DNA of 64,000 nt from Elusimicrobia bacterium RIFOXYA2_FULL_47_53 (GTDB taxonomy: Bacteria; Elusimicrobiota; Endomicrobiia; Endomicrobiales; XYA2-FULL-47-53), in the NCBI GenBank assembly GCA_001800315.1, contig MGVE01000017.1, positions 4,942 through 68,941 of the forward strand, written 5' to 3'. The notes beneath the pieces were generated by a model. That model saw only the letters and a list, made by a program, of their open reading frames with translations, was not told the origin of the DNA and searched no databases. The stretch's first letter is position 1. The number at the start of each line of letters is the position of its first letter. Positions 5,898 through 50,600 of this stretch are shown here, piece by piece. Both the position numbers and the translations under genes were made by a program.

Positions 5898-5940
5898 TTT
5901 CAGTATAGGTTGTCCGCTCGTATGGTGGTGGCTTTGGGAT

Positions 5941-5970
5941 TGCACGGATGACGCGTTATCCGTGCATTTT
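5941..5970 (+). terminator. Rho-independent terminator after lon
   Basis: 'TGCACGGATgacgcgttATCCGTGCAtttt': perfect 9-bp stem plus a T run. Confidence 0.75.
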
Positions 5971-5999
5971 CTGTTATAGGAAATATATTTTTCGGGTAG

Positions 6000-6028
6000 T
6001 TGACAATTACTTCAAAAAAAACAATAAT
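6000..6028 (+). promoter_or_regulatory. Possible sigma70-type promoter for the aminotransferase-serA pair
   Basis: TTGACA at 6000-6005, a 17-nt spacer, then AATAAT at 6023-6028. About 100 nt of leader precede ATG 6128. Confidence 0.4.
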
Positions 6029-25445: not shown

Positions 25446-25501
25446 CATTTGCGGTGCAGTAAGGCAATAAGTGCTTGAAAATACTATTATTATTTCAACC
25501 A

Positions 25502-25530
25502 TTGACAAAAGAAATATTTGCGTATATACT
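25502..25530 (+). promoter_or_regulatory. Sigma70-type promoter for the OMP-TPR gene
   Basis: TTGACA at 25502-25507, a 17-nt spacer, then TATACT at 25525-25530. The GGAGGTG RBS and ATG 25558 lie downstream. Confidence 0.6.
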
Positions 25531-25557
25531 ATTATAAATTTCACGGAGGTGCGGATA

Positions 25558-27669
25558 ATGGTAAGTTCAAAAACATATATAAATACATCGCTGATTTTTT
25601 TTATGTGCGTTGTTCAGGCCATTGCCGCGAAGCCCGTTTCACCTGTTAAAACCAATATTGACTTTTATAAAATAGCGCCCGACGCTAAAACATCCGCGGT
25701 TGGAGGTGACAATGTTGCCCTCACCGCTTCTCTCGCCTCAGTAATCTCAAACCCCGCCGGCCTCGCCGGTATTTATCAGCACAAACTTTCTTTAAGCCAT
25801 ATCGTCTGGACGGACAACACGAAATTCGGTTTTGCGTCCTATGCTGTGCCGCTTGAGCACGCTACACTCGCCTTGTCCGCGGGATATCTCGGCTACGGCG
25901 ACACCCCCGGCTATGATAATAACTTAAAACCATATTCACTTTCTTCGTCGTACGAAACCGATTTGGTGCTGAGTTACGCGAGAAAATTCGGCGCCGGCGA
26001 AGATTCCATGCTGGGAATAAATACCAAGTTTGTTAATAAAAAACTCGCTTATTTTACTCATGAGCCTATTACAATGGATTTGGGCGGTATATGGAAGCTT
26101 CCTTTTCTGAGTGAGGGTTTATCTTTGGGGCTGGTTTACAAAAATGCAGGCTCAACACAGCCTCAATCGTTAGTTACCGGCTTCGGGTATCACAATGAGG
26201 GATATAACGATCTGTCCGTCAATGTTAATGCTGATGCCACCTCAAATTCCATGCCGTCATATTCCGCCGGTATCAGTATCGCGCCGGCGCATTTCCTCAG
26301 GATGAGAGCCGGCTGGAGAGAGACAGTTAACAAATATGAGTCTGGGCTCAGAGTCGGTTTGGGGGTGGAAGTCGGAAATTTTTCGGTTGATTACGCCCTT
26401 CTTCCCTACGACGGAGTGCTTGCGCTCCACCATATCGGGATTGACATTGCCATCGGGAGCATTTTTAAGCCGCAGACTGACCCGGAGTACCATTTGAAAA
26501 GGCATTTTACTCACGCGAAAAAGCTGTTTGACGCGAAGAAATATGTCAGGGCCAGAGCTGAGTTTGAGCAGATACTCGCTCTTTATCCCGATTATGTGCC
26601 TGCCATTGACTATATCAATCGCATGGCGCAGGCTATGAAAGAAGGTTCCAGTACGGACGAGATAGGCGCCTACTTAAGAAAAGCCGATGAGTGTCTGGCC
26701 AATAACGATTTCCTTGCCGCCAGAAAGTACTACGGCATGGTTCTCGCTGCGGAAAACGGGAATTCCATGGCTGTTGCCGGGCTGACCAGAGTAAACGAGT
26801 TAATAGACGGGCTGCAATCAGATAAGGCGCGGGATGATAACCGCGATGTCATAGCTAAAATATGGGAAGAGGCCAGTGTTTTGTACGCGAGGGGAGAGTA
26901 CTTAAACGCAAAGGAAGTTTTCAGGGGAATACTGGCTCTGGATCCGAAACATAAGGAAACTCTTGAACGAATCGTTGAAATAGACAACCAGCTTGCCAAG
27001 ATAAACGCAAGCAGGGTAAACGAGATGTTTGATTCCGGCATGGACCTCTATAATACGGGGAAATACAAAGAGGCTATCAGGTATTTTGAAGCGGTTGTGA
27101 TAGCCGCGCCCCACAGGATGGACGCCGAGGAGCTGGTCGCGAAGTGCAAGCAAAGGCTTGTTGATGATGAGGCGAGGGCCAAGAGGGAGCGCCTGGCTAA
27201 AGAACAGAGCAGAATGAAAGGCGAGGTTGAGGGCGCTTTCGCCAGGGCCATGAGTTTTTACGAAGAAGGCGATTATATAAAGGCTATGGAGTGGTTTAAT
27301 AAAACCGATGATGTTGCTTCTCAGTATGAGTTTGAGGAGTATCAGGATGACTCAAAAAAATACATCGCCACAATAAAGTCAACATTGTCCGAGAGGCACT
27401 ATAAATTCGGGTTTAACTTCTACCAGCAGAACAGGTTTGAGAGCGCCTATTCAGAATACAGAAAGGCTATTCAGTATAATCCCGACAACTCTTCGGCCAA
27501 ATTGGAACTGGATCGCCTTGCTAAAATGCTGGCGCAGAATTACTACGAACGGGGAATGAGCTATTATACCCAGGGCGATTACAATAAGGCCAGGGAGCTT
27601 TTCTCAAAATCTCTCTCTTATCAGCCCGATAAACTGGAGCCGCAGCGAGCGCTTGACCGCATGAAATAG
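25558..27669 (+). CDS. Outer-membrane beta-barrel-like domain fused to C-terminal TPR repeats
   Basis: Signal peptide 'LIFFMCVVQAIAAKP'. The N-terminal ~320 aa have alternating beta-strand character and an 'ISNPAGLAG' motif (PorV/FadL-like, tentative). The C-terminal ~380 aa hold clear TPR units, such as 'YYERGMSYYTQGDYNKARELFSKSLSYQPD'. Confidence 0.72.
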   Translation: MVSSKTYINTSLIFFMCVVQAIAAKPVSPVKTNIDFYKIAPDAKTSAVGGDNVALTASLASVISNPAGLAGIYQHKLSLSHIVWTDNTKFGFASYAVPLEHATLALSAGYLGYGDTPGYDNNLKPYSLSSSYETDLVLSYARKFGAGEDSMLGINTKFVNKKLAYFTHEPITMDLGGIWKLPFLSEGLSLGLVYKNAGSTQPQSLVTGFGYHNEGYNDLSVNVNADATSNSMPSYSAGISIAPAHFLRMRAGWRETVNKYESGLRVGLGVEVGNFSVDYALLPYDGVLALHHIGIDIAIGSIFKPQTDPEYHLKRHFTHAKKLFDAKKYVRARAEFEQILALYPDYVPAIDYINRMAQAMKEGSSTDEIGAYLRKADECLANNDFLAARKYYGMVLAAENGNSMAVAGLTRVNELIDGLQSDKARDDNRDVIAKIWEEASVLYARGEYLNAKEVFRGILALDPKHKETLERIVEIDNQLAKINASRVNEMFDSGMDLYNTGKYKEAIRYFEAVVIAAPHRMDAEELVAKCKQRLVDDEARAKRERLAKEQSRMKGEVEGAFARAMSFYEEGDYIKAMEWFNKTDDVASQYEFEEYQDDSKKYIATIKSTLSERHYKFGFNFYQQNRFESAYSEYRKAIQYNPDNSSAKLELDRLAKMLAQNYYERGMSYYTQGDYNKARELFSKSLSYQPDKLEPQRALDRMK

Positions 27670-27849
27670 TGTGTTTAGCACATTTATGATTGCTCAGGCA
27701 GATAATACCTTAACCGTTGTTCACTGAATTCTCTTCTGTGCCGCTTTCCTGTTTATTTCATAATAATTTCACAAAATTTTTTAAGCTTTTGCGCATTGTT
27801 CTGGTAATACTCCCACAGGACAGGTCTGTAAACTAAGGCGGTGTTCTGT

Positions 27850-28209
27850 ATGGGAACAATTCTCATTATTGAAGACGAGTTGCCGATAGCGAATCTTTTG
27901 AAAATACGCTTTGAGGCCGAGGGTTTTAAGGCTCAAATAGCCCTTTCCGCGGCAGAGTGCCTGAAAAAGATAATGACTGCTATACCGGACGCTATTACGC
28001 TGGATATCACGCTTCCGGATTGCCGAGGGTTTGGCCTGCTTCAGGTACTCAAGTGTAACCCGAAGACTGCCAAGGTTCCGATTATCGTGATTTCTTCAAG
28101 CGATGAGGCGGAATCTGCCGCTGAGATCGGAGCGGTAAGTGTAATATCAAAACCCATTGATTTTAAAAGGCTTTTGGAGGTTTTAAAAAAGGTGTGTGGC
28201 AGTAAGTAG
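27850..28209 (+). CDS. Stand-alone response-regulator receiver domain (CheY-like)
   Basis: 'ILIIEDE', the phospho-acceptor context 'ITLDITLPD', 'PIIVISS' and 'ISKP'. No output domain and no kinase in the window. Confidence 0.85.
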   Translation: MGTILIIEDELPIANLLKIRFEAEGFKAQIALSAAECLKKIMTAIPDAITLDITLPDCRGFGLLQVLKCNPKTAKVPIIVISSSDEAESAAEIGAVSVISKPIDFKRLLEVLKKVCGSK

Positions 28210-28322
28210 CCTCAGCTTGCATGTGTTTTTGCAGTTGCCAGGTTTGCCTGTCTGATTAGGCTGTTGAATCGTTTTCTCGTATGACTTATAGCTTGTGTCA
28301 ATTGAAAAAGCCTTTAAAATGC

Positions 28323-28504
28323 CCTGTCATTGCGATCTCCCGCAGGGAGAGAAGCAATCTCGTCTTACCGTCGTAAACTACGAGATAGCTTCCCGCCACT
28401 AAAGCTTTGGCGGACTGCCGTGTTGTTGCGCTTCTCGCAAAGACGGCCCGAAACACATTTTTTGCAGGCTCAACTTAAAACTTATAGCTGAAAACTTAAA
28501 ACTG
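28323..28504. repeat. Hairpin repeat modules plus an 'aactta' short tandem repeat
   Basis: 'cctgtcattgcgatctcccgcagggagagaagcaatctcgtc' is a near-identical inverted copy of 9572-9608. Then 'cccgccactaaagctttggcgg' and 'caacttaaaacttatagctgaaaacttaaaactg' (28471-28504). Confidence 0.75.
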
Positions 28505-28593
28505 TCGTTTTAATGTTTCACAAAGATTTTACATGTATTGCGCAAGTATTTTTATATATAAATACACAATTATATAGCATTCAGAGAAAAGTG

Positions 28594-28621
28594 TTGCATT
28601 TACGCGATAATTAGCTATAAT
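28594..28621 (+). promoter_or_regulatory. Sigma70-type promoter of the small TM gene / giant ORF 1 unit
   Basis: TTGCAT at 28594-28599, a 16-nt spacer, then TATAAT at 28616-28621. The -10 region and leader ('ctataattgta.cgg...cggatttga...tgttgaa') are homologous to 47044-47100. Confidence 0.6.
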
Positions 28622-28672
28622 TGTATCGGATTTGATGTTGACAATTTGTTGAAGTTGTAACGGGTGAACATT

Positions 28673-29227
28673 ATGGGAAAAAGTGCAGCAATCATCCTGC
28701 TTTTTTCTATGCTGGCGAACACACTGTCGCCGCGCAGTTTTCTTTTTGACGAAAACAGCGGCCTTGTCGCCGGAGCCTTAGGCGCGCAGACTATGGTCGT
28801 CAGCGTTCTTCGCTTCCCTTTTCATCCCATGAAGGCTGTAAAGGAACTCTACGATAAAAAAACCCCTCTTCCCTTTTCTCCGTCTAAAAACAGCGGCAAA
28901 CAGGGCCGCAGGACGGCCGGGGAATTTGAATATACGGTTTCGCTTGATAACCTGAAAGACAACAGGTTTGACAACACCTTCATTCTTGTAAATACTTTGG
29001 TTTCCTGCTCGCGTTCGCTTACTTTAACCGTCGGTAATATTAAGAATAATTCTCCCGGCGGGAATACTTTCGCGGCACTTTTGATATTCCTGATGTTGTT
29101 TGCTCTGCGCCCGAGAAGCTCAATAAACAGCGACAATATATTTCCGATAAAATATACAACTCTTAATCTCCGCCTCTTAACTGACGGCGGGGATTTTTTT
29201 ACTTACGGTACAGGGGAGATTTTATGA
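28673..29227 (+). CDS. Small membrane protein, paralog A (precedes giant ORF 1)
   Basis: ORF 28664..29227. ATG 28673 was chosen because 'MGKSAAIILLFSMLANTLSPR' aligns residue for residue with 'MKKALVLIILAAMVANFLVPR' of 47105. It has a second shared hydrophobic block, 'LLIFLMLFALRPRS'. Its stop overlaps the giant ORF start (ATGA). Confidence 0.6.
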   Translation: MGKSAAIILLFSMLANTLSPRSFLFDENSGLVAGALGAQTMVVSVLRFPFHPMKAVKELYDKKTPLPFSPSKNSGKQGRRTAGEFEYTVSLDNLKDNRFDNTFILVNTLVSCSRSLTLTVGNIKNNSPGGNTFAALLIFLMLFALRPRSSINSDNIFPIKYTTLNLRLLTDGGDFFTYGTGEIL

Positions 29228-32200
29228 AAACAACTAACTTTTCGTCGGAGAGCCTTCTGCGAATGCCGCTTGGCATTCTGTGGAAAATGCTTTTTTCGTG
29301 GATAAGAAAAAACGCGAAAAAAATTACCGCGGTAAATGTAATTATGGTTTTTTTGTCGTTTGAAATGATGTGGGTCAGCGGCTACGCGAGCACCATTAAG
29401 GAAATTCAGGACAAAAAAGTCTCCGAGCAGGCATTGGGCCGATGGGATAAGAAAGTTGAATTTAACGGTAAGTCAATTACTTACGCGCCAAACGGCGCGG
29501 CCAAGTCCGTAAAAGATAATAAGACGGGAATGACAGAGGATTTCATGGAAACTGACGGCAAGGTTTCCGTGATAATTAGCGATGCTCAGGGCAATGTATT
29601 ATCTCAGAAAGAAATGTCTAAACAGGATTTTGTTAATTATTTTAAGGCGCTGACATCGGGCGATTCTTCCAAACCCGATAAAGACGCCTCAAATGTTCAG
29701 TATGGAAAAGTTAAGGTAGAAGATAAATCAGCAAAGAAGTCCGATGGCCAGTATAATCTGGACAGCGGCGTTAAACAGGCGGGAACCGCGAAATCAAATG
29801 TCGGCGGGCAGGTGGATCTGGCGGCGCTTGCCGCTCAGTCGTGGCAGAAGGAATATTCCGCGGCCAGCCTTTCCGGGAAAAAACAGATGGTGGAACAGGT
29901 TGGTATAACCGAGGCGGAAGCTCAGAATTTCTCTCGTGAGACCGCCAAAAAAGTTCAGGCTCACCTCGGTTTTACCGATAAGAAACAGGATGAAAGCGGC
30001 ATAACGATAAAAGGCCTCGCTGATGTGCCCGAACAGATAGGCAGGTATGTAAATAAGGCGCTCGCGGGCATGGTTAATGTCGTAAAGAGCCTCGTTAAAG
30101 GAAAAGAGGGAAAAGAAGTTGAAGTCAGTATCGCGGATATCCAGGGCGCAGCGGAGAAATACGGCATCCGCCTTAAGAGTTCCAGAGGGACGGTCACTGA
30201 CCTGAAAGGTGTTGTCGCGGACGGGCCGGCGATAGCTCATTTGAACACCGGCGGCAAGACGGGAACTTTCGTTGTTGTTAAAAGCATTGACGATGACAAC
30301 GCTGCGATAATAAATTCGGATGGCAGTGAGTCAACCATTTCGGTTCAAGATTTTGAGGCCTCCTGGTCAGGGAAAATGATGTCGCAGAAATCTGACGGTC
30401 CGGAACTGGTAATAAGCGAGAAAAAAGAAACAAAAGGCAGGTTCTATAGTGAATTTTTCAGTTCAATAGGCAAGGTTTTCGGCGGCAGATCTGGTGATTT
30501 GAAAAACGCTGTCCGCGGTTCTCCTTCCGACACAGAGCCCGTGGTAGCTGGCGCTGTCGGCGGACAGATTTCAGAGGGAACGAAAACTGGACAGGTGTCG
30601 GATCTGAAAGGCAAACCAGGACAAGTCCAATCCTCAGCAAACGACCAGAGTGTAGTAGGTCAGACCATCAGTCAGATTGAAAAATTTCTCAACGATTTTG
30701 TTAATGCCAGCCCTGCCGAAAAAGCCAAAATGGCTGCCTCTCTTGGAGTTCCTGTCAGCCAGCTTGCCAATATAACCGCGGAAACTGCCTCAAAAATAAT
30801 TGATTATCTTAAATCTCAGGGTGAGGGTATACTCAACTGCGCTGTGCAGTCGCTGTTCAATCTCTTTGATTCTTCCGGGAAAAGCTACAGCAAGAGCGAT
30901 GTGGCCGCAAAAGCGATTCTCGTTGATATTATAACAGGAAATGTTACAAAACAGGCGGAGCAGGGCGGTCCGTTGCGCCTGAGTATGAATGCCATACAGA
31001 AGACGGCCGGAGCGTACGGCGTTGACATGACCGGCTACAGTACGGATATGGCAGGACTCAAAGACGCGGTTGCCAATGGCCGCGGAGCGGTTGCATACAT
31101 CAATACCCCCGATGGACAGGGCCATTTCGTTGTTGTCACAGGCGCGAAAGACGGGATGATCACCTACACCGATGCTGACGGCAAGAGCTACACGGTCAGC
31201 GAGTCGGATTTTCAGTCAAAGTGGTCCGGCCAGGTGCTTTCCCAGGAAAAGGTAAAGAGCCCGAATGCCGTAGAGCTTGGGTTCTCGGCGCTGAAACAAA
31301 CTATGGGCGCTTCTATGCCTCCATCAAATACTTATCCCACAGGCGCAGGCGAGTCAACTCCGGATCCCGATGCCTCAGCCTCGGCCCCGGCTCCTGACGA
31401 GGAATCTGGTGATAGTGACAGAGGTGATGGAAGGTCGGGGATTTATGGATTTGGTGGCGACGATGATTCCGCCGCAAGAGCTGCTGAGGAAGCCAGGAAG
31501 GCAGCTGAAGATGCGAGAAAGGCCGCTGAGGAAGCTCAACGGAAGGCCGAGGAGGCCCGTAAAAAGGCTGAAGAAGCGCGCAAAGCAGCTGTTGATAGAG
31601 AAGAGCAGAAAGCGCTTGATAAGGCTGCCGATGAAGCGGAAAGGGCCGCCAAAGAAGCAATTAGAAAAGCAGATGAGCTGGCTAAGATTGCTGATAAAAC
31701 AAAAACATCCGCTGAAAGAAAATCTGTTGAGTCTGTTGCGAATTCGCAGCCGTCCGTCGGTGCCGATTCTCAGGATACGGCTGATGTCTCAGTAACAGGT
31801 AAGATGGTAAGAAGCGCTGAAAATGCCGCGGTTGCTCCCCAGCAGGCTCGCGGGACAATGTCGGACATAATTAAAAAATCATTCGGTTTAAGCGGTACTG
31901 AGGATAAGGGCGAGTCAAATGCGCGTTCAAATATTACCGGTGAGACTGCAGATACGGCTTCCGGACTTCAGGATATAGCTAATCTAAGAACTTCCGTGGG
32001 GGCTGTGCCGTCTGACGAAGTGCCGTCTGCGGCATCTAGAGTAGTTGGTCCCAGATCAATAGGAACAGAATCCTCGGATCAGGAGGAAACAGTTGATTCA
32101 GGGCGCAGCGCCATACAGGAAGGTTTGAGGAATGTTTTTGGGGATATTCCCGCACCTGTTGAAAGCGCGGTTTCCGCTTTAGAGGGAACTTTTAATGTTA

Positions 32201-35200
32201 GAAGCATTTTGGGTAGTTATCGTAAAGATGTCTCCGGAGATGAAAGCGATTCAAGCGGAAGTTCTTCGCAGTATGACTCGGTGTCAGGAAAAACCGCCAT
32301 TCAGACAGCAGGATTAGGTAATTCCGGTTCCTCTCCCGTTGGTAGACAAGTTAGGAGCGAAGCTTCTGCCGGATTGTCGGAATCGGAATATGATAGTGGA
32401 TATAGCGGCAGAAGAGTTCTTTCAAGGACGGATGAGTCAGATATGTCCTACGGCCGCCGGATAGTTGACAGTTCCAGCGGCGATGAATCCTTTACTATGG
32501 CTATGGCCGGTTTTGGCGCCAAAAGATTTGGCGCTCAGGATGAATTATCCGAAGAGGATCAGGCTCTTGCTGAAGAGTCTGAAAAAATGGTTGACGATAT
32601 TGAAACCAAACTGAAAAACTATCAGAAAGCAAGCGCTAAGGAAAAAGCAAAGATAGCCGAAGAGCTGGGTGTAAAGCCTGAAGATCTGATGAATTTGACG
32701 GATCTGGAGATAAAAAGAATTGTTCATAATCTCAGGTCTATGGGCGGCGATCTGGCGAGAAATTATCAAAAAGCTAAGGATGAAAATACTTCCGGAAGTT
32801 TTTCGCTTGATGCTTTGCAAAACAGGGGATTTGATACTTCTCGTACAACGGCTGAAAAAACCAATGATTTATTCAAAGATATTATAACCGGCAAGGGTGT
32901 CAGGAACTCTTCGGAAAACAAAGATGGTCAAAATGAACCGCAATTTGATGAGTTTGGCGGCGCTTCTTATCAGTCTGCGGGCATGCGCGGGCAGAGTGAC
33001 GGCTACAACAAAAGTGTTTATGGTAGCGGGACCACTCTTCAGGAGTTGGGTGCCCGCGGCGCGAGTGCGCTGAATGATTTATTCCACCAGGGTTATAGTC
33101 TTTTTGAGGCCGCCGGGATGCTTGCCCAGGCAAAAGAGTTTTCTAAACTGCCTCAGGAAGTGCAGGACCAGTATAATCAGGCAGCTGATAAGATGACCGA
33201 TGAAATTGAAGAATGGTTATACGATTTTGAATCTGCCGATGCTGCCGGTAAAGAGAAAATGGCCAAAAAATTCGGCCTTACGGTTGACGAGGTAAAAAAC
33301 CTTACAGCTGATGGAATAGATCAGTTTGTTGGAATGCTCAGGATGCAGCGCGGCATGGCGCTGGCATTTAGTCCGGGCCTGAATAAACTATTTTCAGCTT
33401 TGCAGGGAAACGGCAAGAAATTTGACATGGCAAAGGTCGCCGGAGAGGCATTTTTGACCAATTTCCTTGTCGGCGGTTCGCGGGCATCAATTAAGAATGA
33501 GTCAAACGATGTGACAGGTGAAAATTATTCTACGAGAATTCCGCCCAGCCTCACCCTTGACCTGTACAGCGTGCGCAAAGTAGCAGCAAAATATGGCGTT
33601 GAAATGGGTATGGCATACAGGACCGATCTGCAGGGGCTTAAAGACGCCCTGGCCAACGGAACGGAGGTGGAAGTATACTGGTCACAGTATGGAAATAATA
33701 ACCTTGTCAAACTAATAGCGATAGATGGCGGACAGGTAGCTTTCATGACTGAGAGCGGCCAGGTTATGAATATTCCGGAAAAAGACTTCATATATAACTG
33801 GAAAGACGGCCTGGTTTTTACAAATGAGGAAATAACCAGAGGAGTAGCTGTCAGTGAAACTGAACTGAAGGGCCTTGGAATAAATAACTTTTCAGGAATC
33901 AAAAAAGAAAAAAGCAAAAAGGGTTTCCTTGGCGCAATAATAGGAGTTGTGGCCATTGTGGCCATGGTAGTAATATCCATATATTGCCCTCCTGCTGGTG
34001 CCGCTATAGGTACAGCTGCGGCCGGTGCGGGTACCGGTACGGCAGCTGCCGTAGGAACAACTGCTGCAATTGGAACATCATTGACTGCGACAGGTGTGGG
34101 TATGATGTCAGCCGGCGCGGCCATGATAGGTACGGGTATAGGAGCAACGATTGCAGGAGTAGGTATGGTTGCTGCCGGTGCTGTTGTTGCCGCAGCTGGT
34201 GCCATTGCCACAGCTGCTGCAGCGATAGGTGCGGCATTTTCCGCTGCTGGAGCTGCTGTCAGTAGCGCCATGGGACTTACTGGCGTCGCAGGTTCATTTG
34301 TTTCTGGATTTGTCTCAGGCGCTCTCTCGTCAATGGCCATGAGTATGGGTACTCAGCTGATAATGACCGGCTCAATAGATTTCGGCCAGGTTTTAAAATC
34401 AGGGCTAACTGGCGGTTTGACGGCAGGCATAATGCAGGGAATAAATGCAGGATTTGATGTGGCCATGGGCAACCCAATAGGATCAGCTGGTGGTGGCCTT
34501 TCAGGATTTGTAGAGAATTCGTTGGGTTTTGGAAGTTCTGCCGGCGGTTTTGCAAGTAATTTGATGCAGGGCGCAATAAGCGCGACGGTGGATTATGGTA
34601 TAAATGGTGGAAATTTTGTTGATAAACTTTCAAATCTAGGAATGAGTATCGGTAGCGGATTATTGGGTTTTGCTTCGGAAACATTAGGACTGGGTAAGGT
34701 ATTTAATAATATTGGGGCGTTGGCAGGTGAAATAGTTTCCAATGCGGTTAAAGGAGCTGTAGGAGCGTTGGTAGATTATGCCATAAACGGCGGCAATCTT
34801 GCTGAAAGCCTTACCAGGTCAATTGTCGGGTCAGCAATGAATGGCTTGGTTGGAGTAAATGGCTTAGGGCTTACTGGACAGCCCGCAAGCTCATTTATGG
34901 GAGATTTCTTTGGTACTGCTATCGTGAACTTTGTCACTGATACCGTTACAGCTTTGGTAAGCGGGAATGAATACGATTTTATGGACACTCTAACAAATAG
35001 CTTGTTGTCCGGATTTACAACAGCTACGACCAATTATGTGCTGGAGAAGCTATTTACTGAGAACGAAATTAAATTTGCGGATAAATATGGCTTTATTAAT
35101 GACCCCACGAGAACAGCTGACTACGCATCTGTATCGTTTGTTATGTCAGCTTTATCAAGTTTGACGGGTATAGCGGTAAAAAGCGCTCTCGGAATAAAAA

Positions 35201-38200
35201 TCCAGGATGGCGCAATCAATAGCGCCATTGCGGCAGCTTTTGAATCAGCCTTTAAGCCCTATTTGATTGGTATGTATAACAGAGGTGAGGCAGCTGTTTT
35301 GAGCGCTCAGGCAAGAGCAAATGGCTGGGGAGATAAAGACAGCGGCTTCTATATGGCTCCCCAGGATGACATAGAATTATTGCGTGACATTGACGGCAAT
35401 ATTAATATTATTAACGGTACCGCTCGGTACGGTTATGAAGATGGTGTGCATTATAATGTTTCTTATAAAGAAGGTAATTATTCTGAAATCCGTGTTAATG
35501 ATAAAGAGAAGGGTATTGTTAACGAATTGGCTGTCACAGGCCCTCAGAATGGCCTTGCTCAGGGTATTCTTGGCATTGATCCCCAAGGCATAATTAAGGG
35601 CAAAATGGTATTTGGACAGATTTACTATTGGAATGGTGGAACCGGAGTTGGCAGACTTTCTGATTCAAGCCTTTTTAAGGATGGCAAGTATTCTTACACC
35701 CTGGGTGACGGCAGGCTGGGCGTTGATATTACTCAAGAGCAGGGTAAATATGTACTGAACTTTAGTGTTGATAATGCTGCGGTGGATATGTATGGTTCAT
35801 CAATCGCGGGCACTGTTTTTACTTCGGATAACAAAAAAGAAGTCTATGTTCTTGATAAGAACGGCGAGCTTGTTGATGTAAAGGCAGGTGGTGTAACAAA
35901 AATGTCGGTAGGCGATGTTACCGTGGAATTTGGTTTTGATGATCGCGGCTATTTTAAAGGCGATATAGTTTCCAAAACAACTTTCACGAATATTGATGGG
36001 GTTACTAATACCTATACCCTGGACAGAGCGCTTATGCAGAAGGGTAAGACCACGATTTATTCTGCCAAGGGAGAAGATGGTAAGTCGTATCTCCTGGAAT
36101 TTAATGCCGATTTTGAGCTTGTGATTAAAGATGTTTTAAAAGTAAATCAGTCTTCTGCTAAAAATGGTGTTAAAGATGTTATAGAAGTGGATAAGAATAC
36201 CGGCGAGATTACAGACAGTTATCAGATGTTGTTAAAACAGCAGGATATGAGCGAAGCGACGAAGGCGATGTTCGGAAATAAATCCGAATTAAGAATAACG
36301 AGTTCGTTGATGAAAAATTTTGATGAAACGGCGGAGTCAAGTAAGTTCGCTTTCGTAAAAGGCGCTGATGGAAAAGAGTATGTGGTCGGATTGGATGATG
36401 AAAATAATATCAAAGATATTTTGACGGGCGAAGTGGCAAATAAAAATGGTGATTGTTTAATAACTTATAGTTCTGATGAAAACGGTGTTTTGGAAAGCAC
36501 AAAAACTCGGCTGATGAATAGTGACACGCTTAACCTTGAGGATAACGAGCGTGATGCCCTTTTTGGGGATAAAGACTTAATTGATGTGACAACGCAAAAA
36601 ACTGGTAGTGGCAAAGATCTTAAGATGTATGGCGAGATAAAAGACAAAGAAGGTAATGTTATTTATGTTTTGGATTTTGGGAGTGATTATGTGGTTGACG
36701 GGCTTCTCAGGAATAACACTACTCTTAATAACGGTATTCAGAAGATAAATTATACTTTTGACAGCAGTGGAAAAGTTAATAAGAGCGAGACTTGGACTGT
36801 CGCCGGTTCCGATTACGACGCCGATCAACTGAAGTTTACGGAAAATGCCGACGGGCGGAGCGTTGTTCAGGCAAGAGACAAGGATGGCAAAATTAAAGCC
36901 ATTGATTATGTAGATTATAAGGATGGGGAGTATCTTGATGGAGGGGCAATAGACAAGGACGATGAGTTTGTGCAATATAGGGGTGAAAATGGTACGGCAT
37001 TATATGCTTCTTGGGACGGCAAGTCCGAGCTTCTTTCAAGTTTTGGCGATGGCAGAAAGACAGCAGAGCTGGTAATAGGCGGGAAAACATTAAAAGTTGA
37101 GATAACTAAAGACGGAAAAGGTTTGCGTCTTACTGACGGGCCTGCAAAGATTGGCCTTCCCGGCGGCAAAGACCTGGTGATTGATGAGGTAATTAAATTA
37201 GATACCGAGAGAGGAGACCTTACCTGCACCGGCAAGTTGAATGTCGGAGCAGGCGAATCGGCTGAATTTGACAAGGAACATGTTTTTGCTGAGAAAAATT
37301 CTCAGGGTGGGGATCCGGGTCCGGATAAGTCGAAAACTAAGGCCAATACTGAAGTAGGACTGCAAATAGACAAAGATGGAAAAGTAACTATAACCGGTGA
37401 AAAAGGCGAATCATCGCTTGATGTCAGTTTCAGTTTTGAAGCTGCCCTTGGCGGTACGGACAGTATTGAAAGAAATATGCGCCTTGAAGGTTTTGCAAAA
37501 GGGACGCAGATTAACTTTAGATCTGATTATAGCGCCTCTGTTTCAGGCACCGGCTATAACAGCCTGCTCGTGACTGCCGGATCTTCAATAGTCATTCAGA
37601 GAGAAGGCGGCATAATGCAGAACCTTGACGGCCTTGCTAAAGGTTCGTATATCGTAAAGGGTGTAAACGCGGATGGCGCTAAAGTGACACACGAGGAGCG
37701 CGCCGCGTCATCTGTCGGGCAAATCAAGTCAATTGATACAATTCAAAAAGGTTCCCAGACTACGACAGTTGAAACAAAAATTGGAAGTGTTGAAAACGGG
37801 AAAGTAACGGATTATACCTATACTTACAATGGGGTTGCTTCTTCTGAAGACGCTCAGTTAGATGGTGATAGAGGAACACTTATTGTTTTTGAAGACATGG
37901 GTGGTGTTATTTTAGGCAGGGATGCTAATGGCATAACTACGCTTTCAGGAATTGTTATGTCCGGCACCCTGAAGTCTGGTGTAGTTGATGGGAGAGATTA
38001 CGCGTATTCATTTAATATTTCAGGGCATAAAGGGGATTATCGGCTTGACACACAACTTTTTGTTGGCGGTGTGCCTTACAATCCGGTTGACCTGATTTCC
38101 AGGCAGGGTAATGTGTCGCGTAGTTTGTATTTTGGCGGCAAGGAAGGTAAATACTCCGCGCTTGCAATAGATTTTAAAGATGGCGATATCGTTGGTATTC

Positions 38201-41200
38201 ATGGTGTCCAGTTAACTGGGAATAATCAGGAAGTTGAGCTGGGTAACGGTAAATCGGCAATATTCTTCAGGAACGCAGATGAAGTTCTGACTTACCAGGG
38301 GAGTTATGATACAGGAAGAATAAGTGAGAAAAATGGAGACATATATGTGTCCGATTCTATATTGAAATCCTTTGGTGTTAATAACAGTATGAATATTAAA
38401 GGAGATTTAATATTTAGAAATAACGGGACAATGAGCTCGGAATATAAAGAACTCTACAAAGGTAAAGAACTTGTAGGTAATCTTGAAAACAAGGGCAATG
38501 GTTTATATGCTGTCATCCCTCCTAATGGAAGCGATAAGATAGACCCAATCGCAGTTAAGGCCAAGGACGGCAAGGGCGGCTGGACGGATGCCGATTTTGA
38601 AATATCCAGCCTCCAGTTTAGCAATGATGGAACAACTACCGCCATGGGAAGGCTATTGCTTGATTCCGGTGAAAGTGTTGGCGGAGCAAAACTAAGTGAA
38701 ACTCTTGGAGGGGAAGGTGGGAGCGCCCCGGAGAATAAGCTTGGCAAGCCTGATTATTTCTTAACAATAGATGGTGATACGATAACAAATACTGGCGCGA
38801 ATGAGGTTGGATTCAGCGTTTCAGTGTCTATGGATCAGCTTGCTAACGGTCAGATAACAGAAATGACAGTAACTGGTTTTGATACTTCAACCCAAGTCAC
38901 GGTTTTGAAAGCTCAGCTTAATTATTCAAGGCCGCTTGGAAATGGACTTACAGCTACAGGCACAGTCACTATTCAGAATAAAATATTTAGTATTTCCCGG
39001 CCTGGTGGTTTGATGGCAAACTGGGATACAATGGAAAATGTCCAGGGTAAAAATGGTGCGGCGTTTGAAGCGGTTTCAATAATTGATTCCAAGGGAAATA
39101 TCGTTAAAGATGAAAAAGGTAACTTGGCTCAGGGTGTAAGAGTATTTGGCGACAAAGGCAAGGTGGAGCAGAGTGGAATAGCCAATATTCAGCTCCAGGG
39201 TAGCTGGATTGATACTTCAACGGCTGAGTTTGCTACAAGGACAGTATACCAGGACTTCGGCGCCGGAGTTGTTGATGTGCTTGCGGGTTCAGTAAAGGTG
39301 CTGTTTGAGGATTCTACTGAATCCGGTTGGAATAAAATATTTAGTGGCGTTGCTCAGATGTATGGTGGTGGTTTGGGTGTCATTTCTGATATTTATGCTA
39401 CAGCAAGTAATTTAGTGAAGCTTATTCCGGCATCGACACGAGTTGAAGCGGAAGAATATTTAATGAATAACAGTATCCTCGCCCAAGGAGCAGTTAGCTT
39501 ATATAATGCATCTTCAGAGCTTGTTCAGTCTGTATTGGGGTATGTGACTGATTCTGGTGTAGATAAAAATAAAGCGATAGACAATATTAAAAATAATCCA
39601 ATAATTATTGGTTTTGAAAATGCAATGTCGGGATTAGCTTCTTTTGCAAATAAAACTTATGATTTCTTGGTCGCCGTCGGTTCCGTTACTACAGGTCTGA
39701 TAATTAAGGCTGTAACTTGGATCCCAAATGCAATAATGGGTATAAAGGCTGGTGATTACAGCGATGATTTTGCAATTAAAAATAACAGCTGGACTAAGTT
39801 TGGTGATGAGATGGAAGCCTGGGGTTTAAGTACTTTGACGGGCAAACAATATGCCTCAGGTAAGGATTTGACATATTCTGATGCTTTTATCGTAGGCGCA
39901 AAGATTGGTGCAACACTTGCCGTTGGGACAAAATTATTGACTGCCGCAAAATCCATATTTGGTGTCAGTTTTAAATCAATTGTTACCGATGCTGTAAATG
40001 CTGGTGTAATAACTACGGCGGCAAATATGGGTACTAATGTTGTTTTGGGTAAGCCGATAACCGCTGAGAATATTACATCTTCATTCTTGTCAGGAGTACT
40101 TATGGGCGGAGGGTTGTCATTAGGTTTAAGAGGTATAGGCGCTGCTCTGGGTACATCAAGCTTTATTGCAAATAGGGTTGCCGGTGGTAAATTGTTTGGT
40201 CAGATAGCAACTTTTGAAAAGACTTACCTTGCAGGTATGGATTGGTTGGGTATGTCGGCGATCAATGGTACTATCCGCGTGGTTAATGCAGTAGATGCAT
40301 GGGCTGCCACCGTTGCTAAAGGAGTTATGACCGCGGCTTCAAGCGGAACGGCTATGATAACCTATGGAGGCGTCTGGAATTTCGCAAAAGTCGCTCCGAT
40401 TTTTGGTGTCGTTGAGACTGTTGGCGGCCTAACCTGGGATATGGTAGTCAAGGGTAAGGATGTAAATGAGAGCATTGAATCAAGGGGTGGGATCTATGCC
40501 ATGGCAACAAGAATAGTAACTCAGCCGTTTGAGTTTGCAAAAATGGCCCTCTGGCTTCAGCCTATGATGGGGGTTGCCCAAGCGACTGATAAAGTTGTAA
40601 AGGCATTGCTTGGAGAAGGGCGTTTTGGCCAGACAATGAGAGTTCTCTCTGGCGAGCATAGCGCGAGCAATCTTATTAGAAGCGGAAAAGTGCTTTTTGA
40701 CTACTCCGGTAAAATTAATGTGGAAGCTTTAATCGCGAGAAATCTTGAAAGACAGGCGGCTAAGCATGGGTTGGCTGCACAGTTTGATAGCGCAATATTT
40801 ATTTCCGGAACGCTTTCAGCAAGCGCTTCAATAGGTACACTGATAGGCTCAACGGTTTTTGGTAAAGATAATAGCGCTATAAATCCTCTGACCGGTATGA
40901 CCGAGGCTCAGGAATGGGGGCAGTCATTTGCTTTCTGGTCTCTGTTGTTCCTGCCTCGTTCTACCGTTACGGGGGTTAAACTTTCCAAAGCTCTTGGAGT
41001 TGAGAATGCTAACAAGTTGCTGAGTGGGTCTGCGGCAGGTGATGTTAAGATTAAAGACATACTTACCGGCGACATTCCTGCTTTTGGAGAAATGCCTGTC
41101 GCGAAGGCTCGGGAGTATATAGCTAATGAGTTTCTTGGAAAAAGGTTTGAGGTCGGTTCAATAGATTTTGAGAACAGTAAAATTGCCATAAAAGAAATAG

Positions 41201-44200
41201 GTGAAGGGAATTATGCTCTTAAAGGTGAAATAGTAGCCAATCGCGGCGCTAATGTTAAAGTTGATATCAAGGATTATGGTTCGGTCACGCTTGAAACTGC
41301 GAGCGAACAGGCAAAGTTTGAAGTCACTTACGATGTTGGAACTAATATGTCCAGAGTAACCCTCAAAGAGGGCGGAAAATTAAGTATTAATGAGAATACG
41401 GGTTCAATGAAACTTCTGGTTAAAGAAAACGCAGGTTCAGCTGAGGGCACGAAAGTAATTGAGGTTGTTTCAGGGGAAGTTGAGGTTCGTGGCGGGAAGC
41501 TTATTCTTGACCTTGCAAATGTTAAATATGAGGTTACTGACAAAAATGGAGATGTTAAAGAAGAGAGCGGCATGATTCTTAATCTGGAGCTGGCAAGCCG
41601 TGGTGAAAGCGGTGATTTCAAATTCAATTCTGATATTTCCTTTGATATTGTCCGTGCTGGTAATGATGCCGGTAAGTTTATCGGAGATGCTAAGGAAAAG
41701 ATTGGCTCGGTTATATCTAAAATGAGTGAGGGGGACACAGCATTTTCTTACAAAGAATTGCTTAGTAGTGCTTTTAATCTTTCTGCCGGCAACAAAAAAA
41801 TAGTTATTGATTTTATTAAAGAAAACTTTAAGGCGAAAACAAAAGATGGTCAGAAAGAAGGGCAAGAGATGGGAACGGAACAAGCCGAACATTATTATAA
41901 TCGGGCTATGGATGCGTATAAGAAGGATGTTTTAAAAGCAAATCGTTTCGTTGATGAAGCGATTGGTAAAAATGAAGTCTCAGGTGAAAGTAAAGTCGTT
42001 TTGGAGAAGAACTCAAAAGCAGATAAGGATGGTTTTAAAGGGGCAGTTAACAGATATACAGGCCAAGTTATTGAAACCCTTAGAAAAAATGGTGTTGATT
42101 TGGATAAGACAACAAAAGATCTCGTGCGCGAGTATGTGTCTGGTAGGCTGTCTGAATTAATTAATGAACGCATTAAGAACCTTTCTGGTAAACACGGAGA
42201 CAATATCTTGGCTGCCGCCAAAGAGTTGGGAGATTTGATGGGTGTTGATACAAATCACATGCAAGGGATTATTAATGGTAAAATGGTTGGCGATGCTGTT
42301 ATAAAGGTGCTTAATGCGTTGTCTCGTGATGGTATTGATCTTCGTCCCGGCCAGTGGGACACATTGCGCTGGGCTATCGAGCTGACCGTAGGGAAAACTG
42401 ACAGGGTGCTTCTAAATAACCCTACTGCGGCCGGAAAAACTCTGAGCGGACATATCATTGCGCTATTCAGGGGCTCTTTAGGTTTGAAAACAGATATTTT
42501 CGCGCCCAATACTGCCCTTGCCAAGCAGGCTATGGAAGGCAAGGTGAATGGAAAAGCTTATGAAACTTTACACGGATTTAAAAAACCGGTAATGTTTGAC
42601 GATATTGTGCGGCAATATACTGATCCTAACAACAAACTTTCAGCGGCAGAAGTTATTAAAATTCTTGAAACAGCTGATACTTTGATATACACTCAGAATT
42701 CATTTTTCCTTATGCAGAATGCAAGAACCAATGGGGACAAGGCTTTAATGAAGGCGCTTGAGACAAGAATGCGCGACACTATGCTTGTGCTTGATGAAGC
42801 CCATCTCTATATGAAAAATGTTATGGACCTCATAATAGCGGGTGATCCTATCCCGCTTGACGCGTTGGAAAGACAGCACTTTGAAATGGTGTTTGACAAA
42901 TTGCAGCAAGCCGGGCTTGTTGATAAGGACGGGCATGTTGAACAAAAAGTTGTTAGGGATATGGTTGAGGACGGCGGGGCTCATGTTGCTTTTAAAAAGA
43001 CGGCTGAGGAAAAGCTTCTGAAAACTTTCAGTAAAAATGAGCTTGGTACTGCGGAAAGTATTCTTTCCGGTATGCTTGGGGTTGTTAAAGGGCAGATACA
43101 TGTTGACATAAATGGAGTCAAGCCTATAAGCGGTTCTACCGGACAGATAGAATATTCAAGGCAGTTCCAGGATATGAGTTTTATTCTTGGAGCGGGCAAA
43201 CAGGGTAATCTTGGAAAGCATAATAAAGAAGCCTTGTATGCTGCCGCAACCAGGTCGCGCACTGTTTCAAGTGAGGGGCTTGTTACAATATTCGGCCGTT
43301 TTGGCAAGGTCCTCGCGATGACAGGCACGCCGCCCGATCGCGCGGTTGCTAAACTTTGGGGCTTTGGAGAAGCGAAATCTATTGGTTTTGCCGGTGGTGT
43401 TGACATTAACTATGTGAATGTCAGCGGAGAGAGCATCCCTGCTATGGTGAAATTTATTGTAGACAGATATATAGCAAATGATAAAATTCAATACATTATA
43501 CAGCATGAGCAGGTTGATAAGGTTATGGATGCTCTAAAGAATTATATCGGTGAAATAAAAGACCCTGCCATGCGGCAAAAACTTTTAGATAATCTTGTAA
43601 GAGTTGGGGAAGACAGGATAAGCCCTCTTGCATCCGGCGGGTATATTGGGAAAATAGTTGCCGCCAACAAAATCGCCGGACTCGGCGTTGACTATAAAAT
43701 TGATCTTGTTTTTGCCACCGACGCGAGATATTCGGAAGCCATTGTAAGGCAAGCCAAGGGAAGGCCGAGCAGGAGCGGTGAATATGGCGAATTTCATGTT
43801 TTCGGTGAAAGAGAATGGATTGACAAGAGATATAGTGAACTTTATGAACTTAAGTGGCGGAGCACTACAAATGAAATCCTGGAAGGACTTGGTGAAGTGG
43901 AAAGATTTGAAAAACAAAAAGCAGAGCTTTCAGGCAAAAAGGATTCTGCCGATAGAACAGCCGCCGAAGCCGAAATTAATGAAAAGCTTTATATTGAGAA
44001 GCTTCAGTTTATTCAGAAATATATGGATGCAAAAGACGAGGCTGATGTGTGTGTGCAGACCGTTTCTCAGGCACTAAGGGATTATGTTATTGAAAGAATC
44101 AGCGTGTCAGAGGCTGATAGAGCCCTGTTTATGAAGGAATTTCATAAGAATGAGGGCATTGAAAAAGGCAAAGCCTCAAAACAATTTAATAAAGGCAGCT

Positions 44201-47658: not shown

Positions 47659-50600
47659 ATGAACATTCAAAAACTTAAGCGGAAGCTGATGGAAGGCGTT
47701 GCCCGGCCGGTCTGGGGAACTCTTAACGCTCCGGTGCCGGTTCTTCTGGAAACGGCCTCGGAGTATTTTAGCTTTATCCGCGCGGTAGCTATTGTCACGG
47801 TCACATGCTTTATCGTCTCCTCAATAGCGGGGCCGGCCATTGCCCAGGTTTCGCAGGTGGCGGAGGAAAACAGAAAATACGCGCAGGTTTTTGATGATTT
47901 CGTTCTTCCCTATACGGCCGCCCGCATTACAGGAGCAAGCTATTCCGCCAGCCCCAGGGTTGTAATTCAGATACAGGACCTTCACTGTCACGGCGAAGTT
48001 CAGCGCAATATAAACAGGGTTTTAAGCCTTGTAAACGAGAAGTATCCGGTCTCAAAGATCTATCTTGAGGGCGCCTATGGTTCTGTTGACACCTCCTGGC
48101 TTAATGCCATATCTGATAAAGAAATGCGGCAGGCTGTCGTTGAATCCCTCGTGGATCAGGGCAAGCTGACCGGCGTTGAATATTTCTCCGCTTCAGGAAA
48201 CTCAGTTCCGGTTATGGGGCTTGAGGATAAGGATATATATAACGCAAACCTTTTGCGTCTTGGCAGGATACTTGATAGCCAAGCGGATGTGGATAAGGCG
48301 CTTTCAGGAATTGAGTTGGAGCTTGCAAGGCTTAAAGCCAGGTACTACAACCCTAAACAAAAGGCGCTTGACATTCTATCTGCCAAATACAGAAAGGAAG
48401 AGGTAAAAACCAACGATTTCTACCGCGAGCTTAAAAAATTAGGCGATAAAAACGGACTTGACATATACGAGTACAGGAATATGACGGCATTTCTCGGGCT
48501 TATGGAGCTTGAGAAAGAGCTCAACTACAAGAGGATAAGCCGCCAGCTGCAGGAGTTTATAATAACACTCAAACAGCGCCTTCCCTACGACGCCTACAAG
48601 GTGCTTCTTGAAAAAATGAACGATTTCTCGCGTTTAGACGAGCTCTATGTTTACCTTATTAAACTTGACCGCGATTTTAAGTTGGGACTTTCTAATACAT
48701 TCCCGAATCTGAGCACTTTTTTCGCTTATATTGACGCAAGCCAGAAGGTAAATCCAGTTAATCTCGTTAATGAAGAGAGAAGGTTTGTGCGGGAACTGCA
48801 GAAAAAGCTTTCCGCCAATGCCACCGAGAAAGAAGTGGTTTTTATAGCGGATTTCTATTCAACACTTGCGGAATACTATACAAACCGCCTGACAGCGGAA
48901 GATTATGAATACTATTTGAAAAATGAAAGAGAATTTAAGGTATTGTGGTCCAAGTATTCGGATTCCTACTATTTGTCCGGATTAGAACCCTTTAACGCCA
49001 TTCTTAACGACTACTATGTCGCCAACATTGAGCGCAACAGGCGTTTTGTCAAGAATATTCTATCGGCCTCGGATACCCCGGCTGGAACAGAGGCGTCGCC
49101 TTATGTTAATAGTGTTTCTGAAACGCTGAAATCACTGAAAAATGCGACTGAAATTGACATTGTAGTAACCGGAGGTTTCCATACTTTAGGGTTGAGCGAA
49201 CTGCTTGCGGAAAAGAATATTTCGTACCTTGTAATAACCCCTAATGTCACAAAGGACACAAAGTATGCCAGCGATGTCTATAACGCTCTGGCTAAACAAC
49301 AGTTCAAAGTTCTATTAGGAGAGGAGAGGCCTTCAACCTCGGCCCAAATCCAGGGCCAAACGACCGATCGTTTTGCTAAGAACACGCCGCAGAAAGGCGC
49401 GTTAGCGTTGCCGGTTATTTCTGGAGATGAATGGGATGCGGGTTACATCCATTCCGCCACCTTGGCTCAAGGTGGTTTAGGGGCACTTGTCAAAGCGAAC
49501 AGCGATCCGAATTCAGTCGTAGGCCAAATCAACCGTGAAATTTTAAAGGACGGCAGAATTAAGATGTCTTACAATGGCGAAAATGAGTATTCACTCCGCG
49601 ACGGCAGTTACGGTAAAATAATACAAAAATACACCGTTACTCCGGAAGGTAATGTGGAGATCGTTGGTTCAAGCGAATTCTCGTCAAAGCCCCAGGCGTT
49701 TGGCCTGACCAGCAAAACCCAGCTGATTAGCGAAGTCTATATTTCCATGCTTTCGGTAGGCGTGTCAGCCGTTCCTTTTATGAAATTAGCCGAGTACACC
49801 TTGGCTTTTCAGAATATGTCGGTAAAGGCGCTTGATAACTTAGTCGGCAAGTCAAGAAGTTATGACGGCAAAACTTTCAAAATAGTTAATGATAGCAGGC
49901 TTGAACCCGCCAGTCAAAAGGCTCTTGCCGCGCTAAAGACAAAATTGTTGGAGAGAAGAACTGAGTTAAGGCAAATTACCGAGAAATTCGCCCCGGAAAA
50001 CACAAACGGTAGAATGCCGGTCACTATCAATGTTGTAGAGGGCGATGTGCTGCCTATTGACGATGATTCTCTCGCTTTTGCTACCGTTAAACTGGATAAC
50101 GGCACGCTTGTTTTATATATCACGGAAGGGCTTTTGAAGAGTATTTCCAGGATTCCGGCCGGCGACAAGAAGGAAAGGATTATTAAGTCGCTGTTGCAGT
50201 GGGAATTGTCCGAGTATATTTATCTTAACGTGGCGGATAACGCGCTTGAAACAAAGGACGGGCTCGGCCGTGTGGTAAGCCTGACTTATCGCGATTTCTA
50301 CAATAAAGAGATGAAAGAAGCGCAGGTTAAAGGGGATAAGTGGGAGTTCGCGGAACTCTTTGCTTTTGCAGATAGGGAAAGGGCCAAACTGCAAAAGCTG
50401 GTCTATGAAGAAGCCAAGCGGGTTACATTGGTTCCGTCCACCAGAAACTCAATAGATAAAATTTCCGATCCGGTTGAAAAGAGGCAGGCTTACGCGGCAG
50501 CAATAAGGTCTGCGGTTAGAGCATGGACAATCTCGTATTTGAACGAATACAAGAAGGAGCGCGCGGGTGATTTAGTCGCGTTAGTTGGAGAAATTACTCC

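Follow-up and report, generated by a model that had tools for sequence, protein, structure and literature searches.

For double-glycine leaders, the published consensus is Leu(-12)-X3-Glu(-8)-Leu(-7) and then Gly-Gly, Gly-Ala or Gly-Ser; in the C39 peptidase LahT150 the catalytic Cys is situated on alpha-1 and the His and Asp on beta-4 and beta-5, and in the LahT150 co-crystal the bound leader makes a helix of two turns between -11 and -4 and is linear from P3 to P1 (PMC6363468). A precedent for cis cleavage by a C39 domain is StbD-CT, a CdiA-type C39 toxin (PDB 8SSK, 8SSM), which cleaves its own chain behind a linker Gly-Gly (10.64898/2026.05.07.723447). Autoproteolysis has already been suggested for giant C39 proteins of Omnitrophota (10.1101/2023.11.21.568195; 10.64898/2026.06.07.730766); these two reports mention no catalytic residues, inactive copies, double-glycine motifs or cleavage sites, and our literature search retrieved no account of a cis leader-like site in giant C39 proteins. 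A preprint on giant genes (hereafter, the giant-gene preprint) treats as open whether the giant proteins of bacteria work as a single chain or are cut into pieces. Here, we describe g1, a giant open reading frame (ORF) in a 64,000-nucleotide stretch of Elusimicrobia bacterium RIFOXYA2_FULL_47_53 (assembly GCA_001800315.1, contig MGVE01000017.1, positions 4,942 to 68,941 of the forward strand), the whole of which is referred to as the window. g1 bears a series of C39-like modules near its N-terminus, named A, B and C, and our preferred reading, to which we assign a probability of roughly 0.6, is that module B acts as a self-cleaving cassette by which g1 would be cut once, after Ala696, with A and C as pseudo-peptidases. 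An earlier note on this DNA, made from the letters alone, had proposed either self-processing of the giant precursor or a role as substrate-binding decoys; of the two, self-processing is favoured, because a candidate double-glycine-type site is found in cis just after B and is conserved after the active relatives of this module.

The modules and the residues concerned are listed below, in window coordinates, with positions in the protein given as amino acids (aa) and profile matches obtained with hidden Markov models (HMMs).

29224..46872, forward strand: giant ORF g1 (5,882 aa), which bears all C39 modules, from the ORF list and its translation.
29833..30411, forward strand: module A (aa 204-396), a putative pseudo-C39; PF03412 E 1.9e-10, BLASTP against B 3e-19.
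30673..31272, forward strand: module B (aa 484-683), by its residues a catalytically intact C39 peptidase; PF03412 E 3.7e-10, PF13529 E 6e-4.
30817-30819, 30838-30840, 31123-31125 and 31171-31173, forward strand: codons of module B for Gln532, Cys539, His634 and Asp650, respectively.
32593..32961, forward strand: copy D (aa 1124-1246), an N-terminal helical subdomain without the beta-sheet half; profile search E 2.6e-8 over model positions 1-101, our own HMM E 4e-6, also seen by alignment.
33202..33855, forward strand: module C (aa 1327-1544), a putative pseudo-C39 of B-type descent; BLASTP against B 8e-25, no Pfam match.

Thus, g1 contains three full paralogous modules of ~200 aa and a fourth, partial copy, and each full module opens with a three-helix subdomain of ~55 aa. 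In the search with the Peptidase_C39 HMM (PF03412), A and B scored 41.1 and 40.2 bits against a Pfam gathering cut-off of 22, so that the family assignment made in the earlier note held at this level for these two and not for C, which joins family C39 only via its BLASTP match to B (29% identity over 219 aa); the match between A and C was at 9e-6. When the catalytic columns were read from the HMM alignment, B was found to carry Cys/His/Asp, A Ile/Thr/Asn, and C Pro/Asn/Thr. g1 has 6 Cys in its 5,882 residues, and Cys539 is the sole Cys among the first 1,587. Pfam, BLASTP and the HMM-aligned columns agree with the claim that there are three C39-like modules of which the middle one alone has both Cys and His. 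The motifs quoted for them were indeed all located in frame +1 of ORF 29224-46872 where the note had placed them, i.e., NCAVQS at nucleotide (nt) 30835 (Cys539), GHFVVV at 31120 (His634), TDADG at 31168 (Asp650) and WSGQVL at 31222 in module B, TFVVVKSID at 30265 and SWSGKMM at 30361 in module A, and LVKLIAIDGG at 33703 and NWKDGLVF at 33796 in module C. Regarding the substitutions, Thr and Asn in place of His were exact, and Ser/Pro in place of Cys fits C (..S-P..) but not A, which has Ile, or Thr with a shift of one residue. The modules also extend beyond the borders originally drawn, by the three-helix subdomain at each start, and the count of three copies has to be enlarged by copy D. The latter retains the three-helix subdomain and part of the next helix, and its helical motif ends in ...NLRSMGG/D, which is the sole true Gly-Gly among the four copies.

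Single-sequence searches of the PDB with A, B and C returned weak matches only (E of at least 0.01), of which the best was 9L5U, a papain-like toxin, and the CdiA/StbD toxin domains were matched too; profile and fold searches were therefore needed. An AlphaFold model of module B, the one module covered by the fold comparison, was built on 31 aligned modules, taken from the window and from related genomes, and reached a predicted local distance difference test score (pLDDT) of 93.5 and a predicted template modelling score (pTM) of 0.88. Its best Foldseek matches in the PDB were the ComA peptidase domain, PCAT1, LahT150, and the C39-type toxins 9L5U and StbD-CT, all with a template modelling score (TM-score) of ~0.70 on the target and a probability of 1.00. 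In the model, Cys539 (model residue 59) starts the helix 59-71, behind the three N-terminal helices, His634 (model residue 154) starts the strand 154-162, and Asp650 (model residue 170) lies just after the strand 165-169. The family profile aligns His634 and Asp650 to the His and Asp of PCAT1 HFVV...ADP. The C39 identity proposed for B is thereby borne out by the PF03412 match, by the AlphaFold/Foldseek matches to ComA, PCAT1 and LahT150, and by the alignment to PCAT1, and the predicted structure supports a C39 papain fold with a Cys539/His634/Asp650 triad laid out as in LahT150. Seven residues before Cys539, in a Q-G pair shared with most active relatives, is Gln532, a candidate oxyanion-hole Gln. 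The Q-G-x just before Cys539 was also considered as an N-terminal cut site in the style of StbD, and was rejected, as the Gln is a probable oxyanion residue and the hydrophobic spacing is unfit.

It is the segment that follows each module that bears most directly on self-processing, and the three tails are listed here with their scores in a position-specific scoring matrix (PSSM) for the leader-like site, which was built from proteins other than g1; a slash marks the point after position -1.

31276..31314, forward strand: double-glycine-type leader-like site after module B (aa 685-697, LGFSALKQTMGA/S), found by PSSM, relatives and AlphaFold.
30397..30438, forward strand: degenerate tail of module A (aa 392-405; GPELVISEKKETKG, with R next), placed where a double-glycine site would be, with Lys at -7, Thr at -4 and Arg at -1; PSSM 1.3.
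33841..33882, forward strand: degenerate tail of module C (aa 1540-1553, GVAVSETELKGLGI), with Leu at -1; PSSM -14.

The site after B, L685-GFSALKQTM-G695-A696/S697, starts 18 residues past the last conserved Trp of the module and fits the consensus of double-glycine leaders, L(-12)..E(-8)L(-7)..I(-4).G(-2)[GAS](-1); the predicted scissile bond, Ala696-Ser697, falls between nt 31311 and 31312. Residue 685 is the start of the top PSSM score across the whole of g1 (10.0), and such a score has a genome-wide frequency of 4.3e-5 per position, whereas the other pattern matches in g1, at residues 586, 1706, 2518, 3152 and 4627, amount to the number expected by chance. In an AlphaFold model of residues 481-720, the mean pLDDT was 98 for residues 681-690, 80 for 691-700 and ~52 beyond, with 23 residues below 70. 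The tail in this model forms a short helix from P10 to P5, is extended from P3 to P2, and is confident to approximately residue 697; this helix-then-extended shape is that of the leader bound to LahT150 and supports a substrate-like binding of the B tail to its own module. The search for Gly-Gly-type motifs called for by the self-processing idea was productive in g1, after module B; a pattern search found no Gly-Gly leader or leader-like site in the two small partner proteins encoded beside g1 or in the second giant protein of the window. Going by their residues, A and C are pseudo-peptidases, since each has lost its nucleophile and its His along with the cuttable tail.

To place these features in a wider context, relatives of the module were collected. 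The module was present in 35 of the 61 nearest genomes and, in a phylum-wide sample of 301 genomes, in 55 (23 of 98 genera); the genomes that bear it are mostly of the same order, and nearly all modules lie inside open frames of 2,000-12,000 codons. An exhaustive search of 1.84 billion representative proteins yielded 288 homologues at E <= 0.001, of which the best 150 were dissected by HMM, and the counts of the strict leader-like pattern given below are for these 150 together with g1. A homologue search restricted by length recovered no full-length relative of similar length besides g1 itself. The modules fell into a Cys-His class (81), a class with Ser for Cys that has His and Asp/Glu (73), and a degenerate class without Cys and His (17). 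Asn-Cys and His were invariant, and Asp nearly so, in 22 aligned active-type modules with 21-48% identity to B, which indicates selection on the triad.

A recurring hydrophobic-x-x-hydrophobic-[RK]-G-[ASG] motif was observed ~26 residues past the conserved Trp in the Cys-His class and ~32 residues past it in the Ser-His class, and the form L-S-x-x-[EDQ]-[LM]-x-x-[IV]-[RK]-G-[AS] was present in 15 of the 22 aligned active modules from genomes. A strict 12-residue leader-like pattern was then sought 10-59 residues after the conserved Trp, i.e., in a 50-aa window, and was matched by 36 of 75 Cys-His and 43 of 73 Ser-His modules, as against 1 of 16 degenerate modules and 2.8% of 50-aa windows drawn at random from these proteins; the motif is thus ~17-fold commoner after catalytically intact relatives than in random windows. 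With a looser collecting pattern, which fixed only -7, -4, -2 and -1, the free positions still showed the preferences of the published leader consensus, namely Leu at -12 (28/46), S/T/D/N at -11 (34/46) and E/Q/D at -8 (30/46). Position -1 was Ala, Ser or Gly in 46/46 and 51/51 collected sites, which the collecting pattern required.

The order of the modules is also shared. Full-length degenerate modules are nearly always the first in their protein, with an intact module next, and this order of degenerate then active was seen in P0003-P0009 and P0013, which are all eight of the closest homologue clusters with at least two modules and whose representatives are <50% identical to each other. The same order was found at loci of four related genomes belonging to different families (G006, G012, G005 and G014). 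Since 'dead A, then live B' recurs across relatives, it is an old, conserved arrangement and not a decay specific to the genome of g1, and A is an old pseudo-module that probably has a non-catalytic role. The A-type tails of relatives carry a conserved E[TK]KKNTKG-TFF instead of a cuttable site, with Thr, Asn or Arg after the Gly. Every pseudo-module A is then followed by the strongly conserved E[TK]KKNTKG-TFFAKLFxxIKKIF (in g1, KKETKGRFYSEFFSSIGKVF, aa 397-419, window 30412-30480), a segment that looks like an amphipathic helix. In most relatives, module C has no counterpart; it is a decayed duplicate of B and occupies the place of the relatives' active module, which directly precedes a hydrophobic Gly/Ala-rich region, as C does in g1.

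A comparable joint loss is offered by P0003 (6,338 aa), the second and third modules of which (406-640 and 1083-1317) are identical over most of the core and differ by a Cys-to-Ser change of the nucleophile, by LRKTKGA becoming LKELRGT (Ala to Thr at P1), and at a few other positions; a further intact module is found near the C-terminus, at 5807-6010. The pattern in which enzyme and site are lost in A, in C and in P0003 suggests, as far as residues can tell, that extra cuts were selected against. The Ser-for-Cys branch (P0037, P0038, P0044, P0047 and ~70 more) retains an invariant Ser, the His and Asp/Glu, followed by EAQxIRG[AS] and then at once by a hydrophobic Gly-rich membrane region, with the modules lying ~70-80% into repeat-rich proteins of 2,000-5,000 aa; this branch looks like a Ser-nucleophile version of the putative self-cleaving cassette. 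In P0007 (residues ~600-650) and P0080, a HINT/intein-like sequence (CFPAGTKVLMADGS... and CCFAAGTMILMADGT...) lies a few residues past the leader-like motif, so that two different self-processing elements would be adjacent.

Taken together, these observations can be arranged into the following mechanism. g1 would carry three duplicated cassettes of one type, each made up of the ~55-aa three-helix subdomain, a C39 papain-fold core, a linker of ~20 residues and a leader-like tail, and B would be the sole complete cassette, with Cys539/His634/Asp650 as the C39 triad. Its tail, L685-GFSALKQTM-G695-A696, has hydrophobic knobs at -12 and -7 as well as Gly-Ala at -2/-1, by which it would mimic a double-glycine leader of bacteriocins; it would fold back into the leader groove of B itself, upon which the chain could be cut after Ala696. 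Such a cut would split a head of ~696 residues, containing the membrane anchor, A and B, from a body of ~5,190 residues. The analysis shows the homology, the fold, the residue states, the conservation of the motif and its predicted docking; cleavage itself, its cis mode and the compartment in which it takes place are what we infer. The only PF03412 matches in the 2.41-Mb genome are modules A and B, and thus no PCAT exporter would compete for the site; g1 itself has no ABC transporter domains by Pfam or NCBIfam, exporter models having reached 32 bits against a cut-off of 500.

The membrane topology that this proposal has to accommodate was read from hydropathy scans, and two segments are relevant.

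29323..29379, forward strand: N-terminal hydrophobic segment (aa 34-52), following RKNAKK, from a Kyte-Doolittle scan.
33913..34014, forward strand: hydrophobic segment (aa 1564-1597), the first one in the long Gly/Ala-rich membrane region after module C, from the hydropathy scan.

The first of these is a probable signal anchor. Several points weigh against the proposed self-cleavage. Should the N-terminal segment be a Sec signal anchor, the modules would be extracytoplasmic, whereas classical C39 domains act in the cytoplasm. A simple two-span topology is, moreover, at odds with the Lys-rich stretch that precedes the second hydrophobic segment. The g1 site is weaker than that of most relatives, with Thr at -4, Ala at -8 and Gly at -11, and a PSSM score of 10 as compared with up to 16, and, of the active modules of the representative set, about half have no match to the strict pattern. 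Finally, a high pLDDT in the tail denotes ordered packing and not catalytic geometry, and the docked tail might just as well be an autoinhibitory pseudo-substrate that is not cleaved.

That last point is shared by the strongest rival, in which the activity of B as a C39 peptidase is exerted in trans, on secreted partners or on prey or host proteins, with the uncleaved tail shutting the enzyme until needed. The docked tail predicted by AlphaFold fits such autoinhibition as well; StbD-CT cuts foreign Gly-Gly sites in addition to itself (10.64898/2026.05.07.723447), and the giant-gene preprint remarks that C39 domains 'may cleave other protein substrates'. However, the evident candidates for substrates, i.e., the two small partner proteins and giant protein 2, offer no leader-like site, and although a genome-wide PSSM scan for trans substrates gave 8 matches scoring at least 14, the best of these, LTIEELTTITGG (MKLTIEELTTITGG/RTN; contig C8:32141-33172), is an acyltransferase-like N-terminus that was judged a chance match, the protein being a cytoplasmic enzyme at the LpxD position of a BamA/lpx-type cluster. 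Moreover, a mere blocker would need no cuttable P1, whereas -1 is held to Ala/Ser/Gly (albeit as required by the pattern), and the site decays along with the catalytic residues in the dead copies. We regard an action in trans as unlikely, at about one chance in several.

Considerably less probable is the reading of the modules as C39-type toxin domains (Tox-PL-C39, like StbD-CT or the 9L5U effector) that are delivered into other cells, the extra copies being decayed toxin cassettes. The single-sequence matches to 9L5U and to the CdiA/StbD toxin domains would agree with it, but the structural likeness to PCAT-type domains is equal or better. DUF637 ('possible hemagglutinin', CdiA-associated) scores weakly just past module C, at window 34201-34630 (aa ~1700-1800), but this match is just below the cut-off, in low-complexity Gly/Ala-rich hydrophobic sequence, and may be compositional. 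The modules are also situated near the N-terminus (aa 204-1544 of 5,882), not at the C-terminal position of a toxin (PMC3482391), they are followed by no immunity-like gene, the next gene encoding a 179-aa membrane protein and the one after it being the second giant gene, and their position and order are conserved across relatives and not polymorphic. The least probable alternative, and by a small step only, is that none of the three modules is catalytic and that all act in binding or as chaperones, in the manner of the Cys-less C39-like domain of HlyB, the triad of B being a remnant: type I secretion offers established cases of non-catalytic C39-like domains (cited in the giant-gene preprint) and two of the three g1 copies are clearly dead, but selection on the triad in the active-type modules, and the co-occurrence of a cuttable site with intact triads and its loss with them, speak against it.

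The surroundings of g1 can be described briefly. Directly 5' of g1 (window 25471-29227) lie the genes of a TPR protein, of a lone receiver domain and of a small membrane protein of 187 aa; downstream, the 179-aa ORF, a paralogue of the small membrane protein on the 5' side, is followed by a second giant ORF (47659 to 63999) that runs off the window and has no C39 module by scans with our own HMM and PF03412. The order of short ORFs, a 179-193-aa ORF and a giant gene is also found in three related genomes of other families (L013, L018 and L019). Farther upstream of g1 are tig, clpX, lon, a serA-like gene and an AcrB-type pump, which places the locus on the chromosome. Within g1, ~630 residues of low-complexity and coiled-coil-like sequence come after the live module B. 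The best named match of the window ClpX (2263-3519), at 72% identity, is a metagenome-assembled genome labelled Elusimicrobiota that is without the C39 module, and other named matches are at ~60% identity or below and spread over many phyla; by these ClpX identities, the host lineage of g1 is thinly represented among named genomes.

That C39 domains occur in giant proteins was known in outline; the residue-level picture was not present in the papers searched, and this locus adds to it one live and two dead cassettes in tandem with co-degenerate sites, and a conserved pseudo-module A. With regard to the question of one chain or pieces, it names a bond, Ala696-Ser697, and a nucleophile, Cys539, that are testable in a small construct, for which A and C provide internal negative controls. 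If confirmed, self-cleavage by B would mean that a leader peptidase and its leader can fuse in cis as a self-excising unit, that enzyme and site decay jointly after duplication, and that pseudo-C39 domains can be retained for other roles beyond ABC exporters. More tentatively, as an idea that we consider possible but would not yet back, a C39 module with its own double-glycine tail may constitute a portable 'cut exactly once' cassette, in which enzyme and site evolve as a unit and duplicates are disabled at the nucleophile and P1 (in A and C and, apparently independently, in P0003), with pseudo-module A in a new role, in which it might hold the head after its release, or the nascent body, either as a chaperone within the molecule or as a receptor of leader-like segments.

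Comparison with the known systems brings out both sides of this locus. With the peptidase domains of PCAT/AMS exporters (ComA, LahT150, PCAT1), B shares the fold and the layout of Cys, His and Asp, and the sites of its relatives share the substrate signature; unlike these domains, the g1 modules are not fused to an ABC transporter but embedded in a giant membrane protein, have an extra three-helix subdomain of ~55 aa before the Cys helix and an insert of ~45 aa after it, carry the leader-like site on the same chain, C-terminal to the enzyme, stand in tandem with dead copies, and are probably extracytoplasmic. The giant Omnitrophota proteins (West-Roberts et al. 2023, 10.1101/2023.11.21.568195; PF03412 cluster, 10.64898/2026.06.07.730766) resemble g1 in having C39 near the N-terminus and the signal or anchor of a membrane protein of several thousand residues with a SecA/DEAD-like region. 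StbD-CT is matched by B in structure and likewise has a double-glycine motif in a flanking linker of its own chain; unlike in g1, the site of StbD-CT precedes the domain on the N-terminal side, ~25 residues ahead of the Cys, and StbD-CT acts as a toxin at the C-terminal position that has an immunity protein, foreign targets (GyrB and ParE) and no pseudo-copies. The closest analogy to A and C is the C39-like domain (CLD) of HlyB-type RTX exporters, which has lost the Cys and kept the fold for a non-catalytic role; unlike the CLD, A and C lie outside any ABC exporter, have lost the His and Asp too, and stand beside an intact copy in the same chain.

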